A stretch of DNA of 64,000 bases, taken from positions 32,001 to 96,000 of IMG/VR virus record IMGVR_UViG_3300021979_000004; one strand, written 5' to 3'. This document shows, piece by piece, positions 3,466-52,883 of the stretch; positions within the stretch are counted from its first letter, which is position 1; the number at the start of each line of letters is the position of its first letter. Source of the stretch: a virus (lineage: Duplodnaviria > Caudoviricetes). Under the pieces are notes generated by a model. It was not told the DNA's origin. It saw nothing but the letters and a program-made list of their open reading frames with translations, and searched no databases. Position numbers and translations under genes: made by a program.

Positions 3466-3951
3466 ATGAAAATAACAACATTAGAAGATATAAAGTCTAG
3501 ATTACTAGGCAAGATTGAAATCAATAATGAGTGTTGGGAGTGGCAAGGTGCTACAAACAATCACGGTTATGGCACTATGAAGATCACAAACCTACAGGGT
3601 AGTGATGAAGGAAGAAAAACATGTTATGTTCACAGAATGTCATACCTGTGTCATAATAATGAATTGCCAAGTGATCAGCTTGTTTGTCATACTTGCGACA
3701 ATCCTATTTGTATTAACCCCGACCACTTATTTTTAGGATCAAATCAGGATAATATGAATGATATGAAATCTAAAAATAGGCAGGGAACTAATAACACCAT
3801 TCATTATGGGAATAACCATGCTGGAAAGAAAGTTATAGCTGATGGAATTGAATATAAATCATTTTCAGAAGCTGGACGTGCATTAGGTGTTTCTTGTACA
3901 ATGATTCGTAAAAGAGTCAAGAATGGTGTAAAAGGCTATAAAAAGCTTTAA
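3466..3951 (+). CDS. HNH homing endonuclease (I-HmuI/Mob-like, C-terminal DNA-binding tail)
   Basis: CWEW..YG..VHRMSY..VCHTCDNPICINPDHL..GSNQDNMND motif. Confidence 0.92.
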   Translation: MKITTLEDIKSRLLGKIEINNECWEWQGATNNHGYGTMKITNLQGSDEGRKTCYVHRMSYLCHNNELPSDQLVCHTCDNPICINPDHLFLGSNQDNMNDMKSKNRQGTNNTIHYGNNHAGKKVIADGIEYKSFSEAGRALGVSCTMIRKRVKNGVKGYKKL

Positions 3952-3980: not shown

Positions 3981-4247
3981 TTCCATTCAATTGCTAACGT
4001 GGTGTTCACCTTAGTTAACATTGGAAGTGTTAGTAGGCACCATCTTTTAGCTTAGGTTTCTGGGACGCTTGCATTTTATAGATAAAATAGTAGGCCATCC
4101 CCATACTAAGCTGCGAATCCGAAGTACCGTTGACCAAACGTTTTAAAGAAAAATAGTAGTCATCAAACGTCATATCGGAAACGCTAGGCTATGTCCTGAC
4201 TCGTGCGAACCATACTAGATTTGGCAATCAGAGCGATTAGGATGGAG
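3981..4247 (+). ncRNA. ~270-nt multi-stem structured RNA, unknown
   Basis: No ORF; nested stems 3993-4051 capped by a GGAA tetraloop; TCCATT/GATGGA and TTGCTA/TGGCAA long-range pairs. Confidence 0.45.
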
Positions 4248-4302
4248 GTTAATAAAATTTGACAAGAATATCTCTAGCTAAAAAAAGTTTTTCTCAAAGT
4301 GC

Positions 4303-4368
4303 TTGACACTGAATTCGAATGACCTTATAATGGTTACAGAAGTTGAGGAAAACGCTCTTTAAAAACTG
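4303..4368 (+). promoter_or_regulatory. sigma70 promoter plus boxA-like site driving the ncRNA cassette
   Basis: TTGACA-17-TATAAT; CGCTCTTTAAAAACTG at 4353-4368. Confidence 0.85.
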
Positions 4369-4371
4369 AAT

Positions 4372-5281
4372 AGCTTTGGTACTCGCTTGACCGTCCCGAT
4401 AGTAAGAGCAAAGGTCATAAATCATTGCCACCAAAGCTTTTTGCCCATAGGCTTACTCACCTATGTTACAGGCGCGGTAACCAATCCGAAGAGTAAGAGT
4501 TACGAGAGTATATAGGCATGGTCCTTTTTCATCATGTGAAATTCCTATCAAGTAAGGGTCATGACCTATATACTCTCAACGACCGATGGCACCCTTGGAC
4601 TAGCTCATCCATGTTACAGGTGCGGTATCCAGCCCGAAGAGCTACCGAATTTTCTAACCAAGGTTTGGCGTAATATGGCCTTGGTTCTAAAAACCACAAG
4701 TGTCTGTTTTTTCCTCCTTTGTCGGACACGCTACCAGTGGGTACAGGGGATAGAGGTTCACCCTGAAGTGGGTATACAGGACAAATATTTAGTTTCTGTC
4801 TCCGGTCCTGTATACCTAAACTTATTTGCCGAAAACCTGTAGACGGTTCTTTGCAGTTGTCCGTCAATAACCGCAGGGTAAGGGGTATTGTGGTTCACCC
4901 CAAATGTTTTGCCTAATGGGTTGTAAATAATATAATTACAATACATTAAGAAGTAGAGGTGAGGTTATGTATACAGGTCATTCCTGTGTGTAGGTTGAAC
5001 TCCTGCTAACCAACACCCTCTGCGACAAGTTTATAACCATGGGAATAAGACCTCTGCAAGCAAGTCCATCTGTGAAATCTCGTAGGAGAAGCGACGGTGA
5101 GGAACCTACGGAAGTGAGTAACATACATGGTTAAAGTTTTGTGCATATGGGTTTGAATTGTTTTTAAAACTTTAAATATCTAATCTAATTTCTCCATTAG
5201 GTTTCCATATGCACAATTTATTATGTACCTGACCGATCCTCTTGGTGCCCTCCGTCTCAGCATAACCAATGGTCAGGTACA
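4372..5281 (+). ncRNA. cassette of back-to-back structured RNA modules (one large ncRNA or an sRNA array)
   Basis: Perfect 9-13-bp stems at 4372-4438, 4504-4577, 4771-4816, 5139-5216 and 5224-5281; no credible ORF. Confidence 0.65.
4453..4644 (+). repeat. two copies of a 44-nt structured motif (4453-4496 and 4601-4644)
   Basis: Core AyCyATGTTACAGGyGCGGTAwCCAryCCGAA; closing stems TTACTC/GAGTAA vs TAGCTC/GAGCTA (compensatory changes). Confidence 0.8.
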
Positions 5282-5437: not shown

Positions 5438-5507
5438 AGTCGGGTAGCTCAGATGAATAGAGCGCGTCACTGATAAGGACGAGGCCGGTAGTCACTACCC
5501 CCGAATT
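5438..5507 (+). pseudogene. degenerate tRNA-Ile (GAU) with 3-nt T-loop
   Basis: TAGCTCAG..TAGAGC D-arm, anticodon loop CT-GAT-AA, T-stem GGTAG/CTACC with loop TCA, no CCA. Confidence 0.7.
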
Positions 5508-5517
5508 AAAAAATTAT

Positions 5518-5594
5518 GGTGCTGTTGCTTGCTGATCACAAGTAGGGAATATACTGATCTAGACAGGAGTGGGTTCGAATCCCATCCAGTGCCA
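5518..5594 (+). pseudogene. degenerate tRNA-like element
   Basis: GGTGCTG/CAGTGCC acceptor, GTGGG-TTCGAAT-CCCAT T-arm, non-canonical D and anticodon regions. Confidence 0.5.
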
Positions 5595-5598
5595 ACCG

Positions 5599-6312
5599 AA
5601 TTGAGTATGAATATCTATTGGTTTTGATATTTTCTTATTGTATCGATATGTTTATATGCTAGGTTTATAAAATAGTCAGAAGAAATGCCTATGTTAGAAA
5701 CGAATTCTTTTTCTGAAATTTCTTCATCAGTATCATCATAAAGGGTTGATCCTATATCATCGAACCGAATAGCATATTTATTTTTATCACTGAATACATA
5801 AATTAAAACGAATTTGTCTTTTTTAAAATATTCATTCCAATCATCAGGTGAGTATGATGAAGTGCACCATTTTGTTGATCTTCCATAGTACTTGCTAGCT
5901 GAATGATTAAGAGGCACAATTGCGAATAAATTGCCATTATTATATAAAATTATTTTATTAGATTTCTCTTTCTTTTTTTGTTGACGATTAGATTCTTTAT
6001 GTCGGTTCTTATCAACATAATCAACGAATGAATTCCATCCTTCCTTTACCCAATAGGATATATCCTTATGATCTATGAGTTGTTTTTGGGATAATTTTTT
6101 AAATGTTTCTATATAATCTTTAACTAAAGACTCGTCATTATTTTTAGAAAATATCCTATAAGCATCTTTGTAAGACTCAAATAATATTAAATCTGTTATT
6201 TTCATCATATAATCCTTGATTATTATCTAATGTATGATACTATTTATTTAAGAGAGAACCTTTCAAACCTAGATAATAACAGGGCTAGGCTCTCAAAAAA
6301 TTGAGTATGAAT
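5599..6312. repeat. 14-bp direct repeat AATTGAGTATGAAT at 5599-5612 and 6299-6312
   Basis: Exact duplication bracketing the inverted gene. Confidence 0.85.
5615..6208 (-). CDS. late protein with MKITDLILFE N-terminus and ASKYYGRSTKWCTS motif (PcfJ-like WC domain, tentative)
   Basis: 197-aa ORF; upstream TAAATA on the minus strand (6241-6250); flanked by a 14-bp direct repeat. Confidence 0.8.
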   Translation of the reverse strand: MMKITDLILFESYKDAYRIFSKNNDESLVKDYIETFKKLSQKQLIDHKDISYWVKEGWNSFVDYVDKNRHKESNRQQKKKEKSNKIILYNNGNLFAIVPLNHSASKYYGRSTKWCTSSYSPDDWNEYFKKDKFVLIYVFSDKNKYAIRFDDIGSTLYDDTDEEISEKEFVSNIGISSDYFINLAYKHIDTIRKYQNQ

Positions 6313-7252: not shown

Positions 7253-7705
7253 ATGATAGATATAAAAGAATATATAAAATTACCAAAGGAAGAAAGACAA
7301 ACACATTTAAAATTGGAAGAACCTTGTTGTGAACGTGGTGGAAAGTCAACACAACACAAGGGCGTACTAGCGCAGTATTTGAATACAACTATACCGTCTG
7401 GTAGAATATTGCTATGTCATGCTTGTAACAATGCAGATTGTAGTAACCCCAATCATTTATATTTTGGAACAGATAGGGAGAATATAATAGAAGACGGTAA
7501 GAAATTTGGTACATTTAGATCGCCGTGGGAAAGTATGGTAGCAAAACATGGTTATGAAAAAGCGTGTCAAATGCAGAGTAGAAAAAGTGATCATTCTAAG
7601 GCTGGAAAAGCAAACACAAAACCTAAGTCAGAAGAACACAAGAGAAAAATTTCAGAAGCTGTTAAAAGAAAACATGCTGAAAGAATTAAGAATAACCCGA
7701 AGTGA
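7253..7705 (+). CDS. HNH homing endonuclease
   Basis: LCHACNNADCSNPNHLYFGTDREN motif; C-terminal KSEEHKRKISEA (NUMOD3-like); stop codon lies inside the tRNA. Confidence 0.88.
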   Translation: MIDIKEYIKLPKEERQTHLKLEEPCCERGGKSTQHKGVLAQYLNTTIPSGRILLCHACNNADCSNPNHLYFGTDRENIIEDGKKFGTFRSPWESMVAKHGYEKACQMQSRKSDHSKAGKANTKPKSEEHKRKISEAVKRKHAERIKNNPK

Positions 7706-51518: not shown

Positions 51519-52883
51519 TTACGCGGCTAGTTCTCTTATTTCATCGAAGGTTTGACGACGCTTAATCACACCATCTTCATACACTACTTCAAGTAGGTTG
51601 GAATCACCAGCAAAACTCTCTGGGACTGTCTTGTAGCCTTCATCCACATCTGGGACTAGTGCTAACCTACCTTTCTTAGAAGTCTTACCAGCGTCGGTCA
51701 CAGGGTCTTTAAAGACGTTTCGACCCTCGCCATTGACTTCGATGTAAGAGCATTTCATAGCGAACTTCTGAGTGTCACGGTTGTGGTCTTGTAGAAGTTT
51801 ACCACCCATACCGAATACAACATTCTCAACAGACCATCCGTTAGTTTTTAGGTTCTCGCAGATTCTACGGATCATTTCGATATCGATACCGTCACCCTGT
51901 AGAACACGAACCTTATCATTTAGAACTTTGTATCCTTTGGTATTCTTATAAGAACCAAACTTCTCATCTAGAGCGGTGATAACATCATAAACAACTTCAA
52001 TCGGATTGCCACTATCAGGACGAACTACTAACACACCGTCACGCTTTAGAATTTTATCTTTAAGCTTCTCACCAAAGATGTTGCTAACTGCATTGTAAAT
52101 GTCATAGCTATCTGCAACGATAGATAGAATACCAGTTGGGTTTTCATCAATTAGTTTCTCGTATGCAGCCGCTTCACCATCTTTACCGTGGGAGGTGATT
52201 GTGCTGTGTTCTGCCGCAACAACACTGTAAGCGCACACGTTAGAATCGTAGTAGCGCATAGCTGTTAGAATACCTTCCATAGTATCTGTACCGCTGAAGT
52301 TGATAAGGTGCGCTGCACCACCAATACCAGCAGTGGTATCAGAAGAAGCACCACGATAGCCGAAATCATGTAGTTTGAATGGTAGGCTATCGGTATTATC
52401 AGATGTTAGTTCTAGATATTTTTTAATAATTTTCTTGCATTCTTTACTGTAAGTTGCTACAGTAGATGCATACCATACGGCAGAAAGTAGACGTGGCTCT
52501 AAGAAAGATGGTAGCCAGTAAAATTCTGGTAGGGTATTTTCAATAACAGCAAGTACGTTTTTGACAGGTAGTACCATACCTTCTTTTACAGCACTGATCT
52601 TAATAGGTAGGTAGCCTAACTCAACGAGTGCTTTAGCACCTTCGTAGTTAAATGGTACGCCGTGTAGCTCAGTGAATGTTTTAGCTTCTTCAACATCCGC
52701 CATGGTTGGAAAATTGTCATTGATATCTTGAATAGCTTTCTGTAGGCCGAAGAATAATACTTCGTCAAACTTGCCGCCACGGCTTTCAATGTAAGAATAT
52801 ACTTTAGTAGTACCAGTTGGGTACTGGCTGAAGTGGGATAGTTTGTAGGAATCTGTTTTTAGAAAAAAGTTATTATAGTTCAT
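51519..52883 (-). CDS. nadV: nicotinamide phosphoribosyltransferase (NAMPT)
   Basis: TDSYKLSH, LHDFGYRG, AAEHS, VVRPDSG, QGDG, FGMGGKLLQ, KDPVTD.GK.SKKG motifs. Confidence 0.95.
   Translation of the reverse strand: MNYNNFFLKTDSYKLSHFSQYPTGTTKVYSYIESRGGKFDEVLFFGLQKAIQDINDNFPTMADVEEAKTFTELHGVPFNYEGAKALVELGYLPIKISAVKEGMVLPVKNVLAVIENTLPEFYWLPSFLEPRLLSAVWYASTVATYSKECKKIIKKYLELTSDNTDSLPFKLHDFGYRGASSDTTAGIGGAAHLINFSGTDTMEGILTAMRYYDSNVCAYSVVAAEHSTITSHGKDGEAAAYEKLIDENPTGILSIVADSYDIYNAVSNIFGEKLKDKILKRDGVLVVRPDSGNPIEVVYDVITALDEKFGSYKNTKGYKVLNDKVRVLQGDGIDIEMIRRICENLKTNGWSVENVVFGMGGKLLQDHNRDTQKFAMKCSYIEVNGEGRNVFKDPVTDAGKTSKKGRLALVPDVDEGYKTVPESFAGDSNLLEVVYEDGVIKRRQTFDEIRELAA

Follow-up and report, generated by a model that had tools for sequence, protein, structure and literature searches.

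The window, the whole 64,000-nucleotide stretch of DNA that we analysed, is part of a 218-kb linear virus record that is ~73% complete. Its tail sheath protein shares 54.5% identity with the one from Salicola phage SCTP-2 and 38% with those from PA5oct-like phages, and we therefore assign the window to an uncultured jumbo myophage. The motif locus contains few open reading frames (ORFs) and lies amid tRNA genes. It comprises the following features:

4303-4331, + strand: putative sigma70-type promoter of the RNA operon (12/12 consensus match, 17-nt spacer)
4353-4364, + strand: boxA-like antitermination site, identified from sequence (10/12 positions as in the E. coli rrn boxA consensus)
4372-4438, + strand: element A, a separate pseudoknotted small RNA just 5' of copy 1 (homologues, covariation)
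4443-4496, + strand: motif copy 1 (sequence, alignment, covariation; 82.5 bits with covariance model R1, which was trained on copy 1)
4504-4577, + strand: long hairpin separating the two copies, probably an RNase III stem (z = -6.05)
4591-4644, + strand: motif copy 2 (sequence, alignment, covariation)

The first motif copy lies ~110 nt 3' of the promoter, and the same promoter leader is found in three related metagenome contigs (L033, L036 and L137). BoxA-like sites also flank the motif in contigs L032 and L034. In the long hairpin a stem of >20 bp is kept and the loop varies freely in L036, L033 and L137, where the hairpin is always located directly 5' of a motif copy. A long stem combined with a freely varying loop is the shape of an RNase III site.

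The initial annotation described a duplicated 44-nt motif at 4453-4496 and 4601-4644. Both copies are present, with starts 148 nt apart, and the conserved unit begins 10 nt further 5' (from 4443 and 4591), a stretch that holds one side of two helices missed in that description. The unit in the window is 54 nt long and its copies are 74% identical over 54 nt, with 94 nt between them. All lengths from 51 to 54 nt (51, 52, 53 and 54) occur among homologues. The covariance model and a structure descriptor revealed no third copy in the 218-kb record.

Fold of the 54-nucleotide motif

The fold was evaluated on an alignment of 11 rows representing 10 distinct cores from three contig groups. Four helices account for the covariation, namely a clamp, a main stem, a pseudoknot and a linker hairpin, with the following positions in the window:

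Copy 1: clamp 4443-4445/4471-4473; stem 4446-4451/4460-4465; pseudoknot 4453-4458/4491-4496; bulge 4466-4470; hairpin 4475-4477/4486-4488; AA 4489-4490
Copy 2: clamp 4591-4593/4619-4621; stem 4594-4599/4608-4613 (one U.U); pseudoknot 4601-4606/4639-4644; bulge 4614-4618; hairpin 4623-4625/4634-4636; AA 4637-4638

The 3-bp clamp pairs a 5' RCC with GGY, its first pair being A-U or G-C. The 6-bp main stem stacks on the clamp and carries an invariant UUACA bulge on its 3' side. Six bases of the 8-nt apical loop pair with the 3' end of the motif, forming a pseudoknot in which three pairs covary, and the 3-bp linker hairpin closes over 5-8 free loop nucleotides. Within the variable loop, one A and one U never change and may make a tertiary contact.

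Across the 11 rows, 97.5% of cells in the four helices are paired and 7 of 18 pairs are changed on both sides; such cells are not independent events, and we count ~8-9 independent double substitutions. The only unpaired cells belong to a single U.U present in five rows. The observed four-helix score was reached by 0 of 500 shuffles, and sliding the registers lowers pairing to 24-37%. Copies in L137 and L140, obtained via neighbouring proteins and not by pattern, contributed new compensatory pairs, among them a pseudoknot change in L137 that came to light after the model was built and an A-U pair in the linker hairpin of L140. An alternative hairpin register leaving a CGAA strand free looked possible on 7 rows and was overturned by L140 and L149.

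This covarying four-helix fold supports the earlier proposal of selection for a functional RNA structure and leads to a different architecture. What had been read as a closing stem with compensatory changes does covary (3 of 6 pairs changed on both sides, 0 broken cells in 11 rows); the helix is, however, the pseudoknot. The inner CCU/AGG stem is paired in 69.7% of cells, with its third pair broken in 10 of 11 rows, and the suggested GUUAC/GUAAC kissing interaction has no both-side changes and loses two of its inner pairs in L140. Since neither the inner stem nor the kissing loop is supported, the suggested three-way junction is not supported either; what covaries is a hairpin held by a clamp, with a pseudoknot formed by its loop. 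The nested part of the clamped model also has a lower energy than the three-way form in 11/11 rows. RNAalifold, which cannot represent pseudoknots, recovers the helix of the pseudoknot along with the small hairpin and a remnant of 2 bp, and some exchange with an unclamped form is therefore possible. Single-sequence folding of the copies is uninformative (z from -0.3 to -0.9).

Distribution and genomic context

Covariance-model matches are found elsewhere in three contig groups, so that the motif does not lack homologues, the outcome that the initial annotation had named as grounds for doubting it. Five carriers (L032-L036) came from a pattern scan of metagenome contigs and further carriers were reached through neighbouring proteins, independently of the RNA sequence. 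L137 carries two copies (70-75 bits), and single copies are present in 20 marine and vent contigs (68.6-80.5 bits) and also in L164 and L166. Copies outside the training set of the model score 68.6-78.9 bits and pattern-selected decoy sequences ≤25 bits. The distance of these held-out copies from the decoy sequences, together with the 74% identity of the window's copies, excludes chance. In all, we count 10 distinct cores in three contig groups: the relatives of the window (L033, L036, L137 and L138), the group of L032, L034 and L164, and the group of L035, L140, L143 and L149. As two of the three groups have one copy per locus, the duplication is incidental.

Core identity between groups reaches 85-94% for some pairs, higher than the 74% between the window's own copies. 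Copy 2 is 94% identical to the copy in L035, which belongs to an unrelated contig group. Flanking ORFs of the different groups yield no mutual tblastn matches except one at 34%. The L032 group looks viral based on its tRNAs and a Pfam Gad2 match. The L035 group is phage-like by gene layout and tRNAs only, and six of its proteins gave no PHROG match. More distant relatives of the L035 group do not carry the motif, which consequently represents an accessory module.

Searches beyond these contigs returned no additional members. No Rfam family matched either copy, each searched singly at E ≤ 10. Six motif patterns run against IMG/VR yielded, aside from the window's own record, only chance matches devoid of the 5' half. 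Among 185,579 GTDB genomes the strict pattern had 0 matches and the loose pattern 25 chance matches of ≤25 bits. Searches with blastn against cultured phages, plasmids and E. coli genomes gave no match, and the related jumbo phages SCTP-2, RsoM2USA, PA5oct and Phosso score ≤18 bits with the motif model. A full-text literature search for the core strings retrieved only unrelated siRNA and miRNA papers. We did not find the motif described in the searchable literature; it could be an unnamed entry among 10,006 viral candidate RNAs (PMC10690425). We conclude that the motif is a real RNA family with a well-supported fold that we did not find described.

The surroundings of the motif differ from locus to locus. 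It is preceded either by a structured RNA (element A, the long stem, a tRNA-like RNA or a short hairpin) or by a promoter-like site, and it is followed by tRNA-Leu, a hairpin, boxA or an ORF. In most contexts, A and U make up 60-80% of the 10 nt immediately 5' and 3' of the motif. No gene co-occurs consistently with the motif across loci, and its orientation matches that of the tRNAs and promoters at every locus. Loop insertions and deletions of 1, 2 and 3 nt indicate that the motif is not coding. Comparison of the loci thus shows that tRNA/small-RNA operons contain a conserved pseudoknotted RNA module that keeps its strand orientation and is independent of its neighbours.

The tRNA-like neighbour is a ~130-nt RNA located 9-11 nt 5' of the motif in L035 (5218-5350), L140 and L149. 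It has an acceptor stem, a T-arm and a large central domain that may be pseudoknotted. ARAGORN and Rfam both missed the L035 RNA.

Possible functions and comparison with known RNAs

Phage tRNA clusters carry small stable RNAs of unknown function, T4 included, and these are the nearest kind to the motif. RNAC and RNAD of T4 are encoded in the tRNA cluster, are processed from the cluster precursor, measure ~120-140 nt and have a tRNA-like CCA end. Also called species 1 and 2 stable RNAs, they are small non-coding phage RNAs whose function is unknown (PMC9697503). The motif is likewise non-coding and part of a phage tRNA/small-RNA operon; compared by description only, it differs in its length of 51-54 nt, its pseudoknot and the absence of T-arm and CCA in 11/11 rows.

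We tentatively propose, with a probability of about 45%, that the motif is a free small RNA that is cut out by host RNases and serves as a decoy for a host protein. It would be a 51-54-nt free-standing non-coding RNA gene, present here in two copies, within a phage tRNA/small-RNA operon. Transcription would start at the sigma70/boxA promoter and proceed with antitermination, placing the motif inside a long precursor, from which host enzymes could release it as they do phage tRNAs, RNase III acting at the long stem and RNase E at the AU-rich linkers. The 5-nt bulge may bend the stem, allowing clamp, small hairpin and pseudoknot to pack as a compact knot with both ends buried. In the weakest step of the proposal, the unpaired positions that never vary (UUACA, the AA preceding the pseudoknot and the single A and G linkers) could then form a surface that binds a conserved host protein. 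The bound protein would most likely be an anti-phage RNase or sensor, or a translation-related factor, which the RNA would titrate, a second copy providing a higher dose. A decoy function fits a motif that has varying neighbours and no expression platform, is doubled here and is nearly identical across unrelated phages. With only 10 cores in three groups, part of the invariance stems from recent transfer, and it cannot separate binding from catalysis. A Gad2 (Gabija anti-defence) family gene is located 2.3 kb 3' of the motif in L164 (4182-5063) and weakly supports an anti-defence link.

Against a decoy, no likeness to rRNA or tRNA above chance names a mimicked target. Comparison with E. coli 16S, 23S and 5S rRNA gave a best p of 0.03 in 22 tests and model scores of ≤8 bits, which is chance level after controls. 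A stretch of 23S rRNA (677-734) is the best alignment in 4 of 11 rows; this is not significant and the pairing partners differ. Ancestry from a tRNA-Glu anticodon arm, suggested by one chance match (76/2000, unadjusted), failed controls, other registers doing equally well. Mimicry of an RNA antitoxin, raised in the initial annotation, would for the type III systems follow the decoy logic of phage-borne ToxI and pseudo-ToxI RNAs, small pseudoknots of similar size. Type III antitoxins, which neutralise toxins of the ToxN, AbiQ, CptN and TenpN kinds, are head-to-tail arrays of simple H-type knots, whereas the motif occurs as single copies or as copies with 94 nt or ~350 nt of other RNAs between them, and it matches nothing in Rfam, so that this suggestion has no support.

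A cis-acting nuclease roadblock appears rather unlikely as an alternative. The clamped pseudoknot would ring the 5' strand, shielding downstream RNA or setting a precursor end in the manner of xrRNAs. Plant-virus xrRNAs (Tombusviridae/Luteoviridae; PMC8374639) have the same topology, a bulged stem with pairing between its loop and the 3' strand, and the loop-3' strand pseudoknot of the motif could in principle encircle the 5' end. xrRNAs also halt bacterial RNase J1 (PMC8374639), and in L032 and L137 at most one other element separates the motif from a promoter-like site on its 5' side. The described rings, however, span 15-16 nt (PMC8374639) and the equivalent path in the motif, counted by hand, ~20 nt. 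The motif further differs in residing in a DNA phage and containing an inserted hairpin, the RNA downstream of it varies, and a mechanical block poorly accounts for the invariant bulge. A self-cleaving ribozyme of a new structural class, with a fold unrelated to those of the theta/HDV, hammerhead, twister, pistol and hatchet ribozymes, is in our view unlikely; it would cut the polycistronic precursor of the tRNAs and small RNAs. A small ribozyme would be in keeping with the size of the motif, its compact knot and the occurrence of A, C, G and U among its invariant unpaired bases, and in most contexts another structured RNA lies within ~20 nt 5' of the motif. The minimal HDV-like theta ribozymes, also small pseudoknotted RNAs beside phage tRNA genes, fill such a precursor-cutting role (PMC10879173), and the motif has a CGAA string before the 3' pseudoknot strand, comparable to HDV J4/2. 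It lacks a conserved P3, L3 and P1.1, however, and its strand order differs. An HDV-like nested double pseudoknot (P1, P1.1, P2, P3) with the covarying helix as P2 can be drawn for one core alone, that of the L032 group (3 of 13 contexts), using a loose descriptor that 10 of 30 random stretches also fit, and the P3 candidate is only 69.7% paired. The would-be catalytic C is base-paired, as the compensatory A-U of L140 fixes the register, and pairs with G in 11/11 rows. A theta-type cleavage site would lie ≤5 nt from a tRNA end; the nearest spacings are 9-11 nt after the tRNA-like RNA and 8 nt before tRNA-Leu. Neither copy matches hammerhead, twister, twister-sister, pistol, hatchet or any other Rfam model at E ≤ 10, and the connectivity, considered against that of twister, does not map onto it by permutation. 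The probable RNase III stem, moreover, already supplies a processing route.

We regard a small-molecule aptamer, acting as a nucleotide-signal sponge or a riboswitch-like sensor, as improbable. The pseudoknot with a hairpin in a long loop resembles the HLout fold of preQ1-II riboswitches (RF01054), consisting of a stem, a loop pairing with the 3' end and a short linker hairpin (PMC11625349), and in the L035 group an ORF begins 20-27 nt 3' of the motif. By contrast, the motif has an extra 5' clamp and a 1-nt loop, too small for the U-A-U triples. The pocket residues C30 and U41 are lost in our own mapping, which places C or U at the first loop position and an invariant A at the last and leaves a single unpaired nucleotide in the loop. 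The motif is overlapped by neither a terminator nor a ribosome-binding site, and its pseudoknot contains no Shine-Dalgarno sequence. An ORF follows in only one of three groups, being absent from the window and L032 groups, and RF01054 has no match at the motif locus even at E ≤ 10. It is very improbable that the motif does not act as RNA at all and instead belongs to a small ORF, marks a site on the DNA or forms a single-stranded DNA structure of a mobile element. The motif looks horizontally shared, L033, L143 and L149 carry IS605-type genes no more than a few kb away, and short ORFs overlap it; yet it is not located at an IS end, its lengths of 51, 52, 53 and 54 nt disrupt any reading frame, the pseudoknotted pairing includes a U.G variant, and the orientation follows tRNAs and promoters throughout.

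A decoy would be an RNA-based anti-defence or host-takeover tool passed among unrelated phages, self-cleavage would establish a new ribozyme class, and an exonuclease block would extend the xrRNA principle to DNA phages. The significance is limited by the rarity of the motif, found in three groups, none of them cultured. As the motif is short, its fold supported by covariation and natural variants exist, it can be synthesized and assayed directly.

Element A and other components of the operons

Element A is a ~60-nt pseudoknotted RNA distinct from the 54-nt motif. Homologues with ~90% identity lie in gaps without annotation in Rhodococcus phages, Sulfitobacter phages and IMG/VR contigs. In the Rhodococcus phages Francesca and Dorin it occupies the gap separating two tRNA-Lys genes and in the Sulfitobacter phages pCB2047 it lies upstream of the terminase genes. 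Besides the window (4372-4438), element A loci are L021 (2996-3061), L022 (2492-2558), L023-L027, L033, L036 and L137. Covariation (7/17 pairs changed on both sides) supports the closing stem and the crossing helices, and no Rfam family matches. Element A is more widespread than the 54-nt motif and is present in cultured phages.

Non-coding blocks at 4084-4282, 4973-5125 and 5514-5612 are 86-95% conserved in L033 and partly in L137; they are probably more small RNAs of the same operons. A degenerate tRNA-like gene at 5438-5507 (Rfam tRNA, 32.5 bits) was not called by ARAGORN. HNH endonuclease genes at 3466-3951 and 7253-7705 lie directly 3' of tRNA or tRNA-like genes, and the one at 3466-3951 is missing in the close relative L036. 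Elsewhere in the window, a nicotinamide phosphoribosyltransferase gene (51519-52883, - strand) with 57% identity to its SCTP-2 counterpart points to phage NAD salvage. Another motif is also duplicated and consists of a short hairpin and, 3' of it, a hairpin that contains a T-loop-like GGUUCA string. It is found at 4732-4772 and ~4870-4912, as well as in L032 (465-498), L033 (750-870) and L137, and is thus common to the window group and the L032 group.
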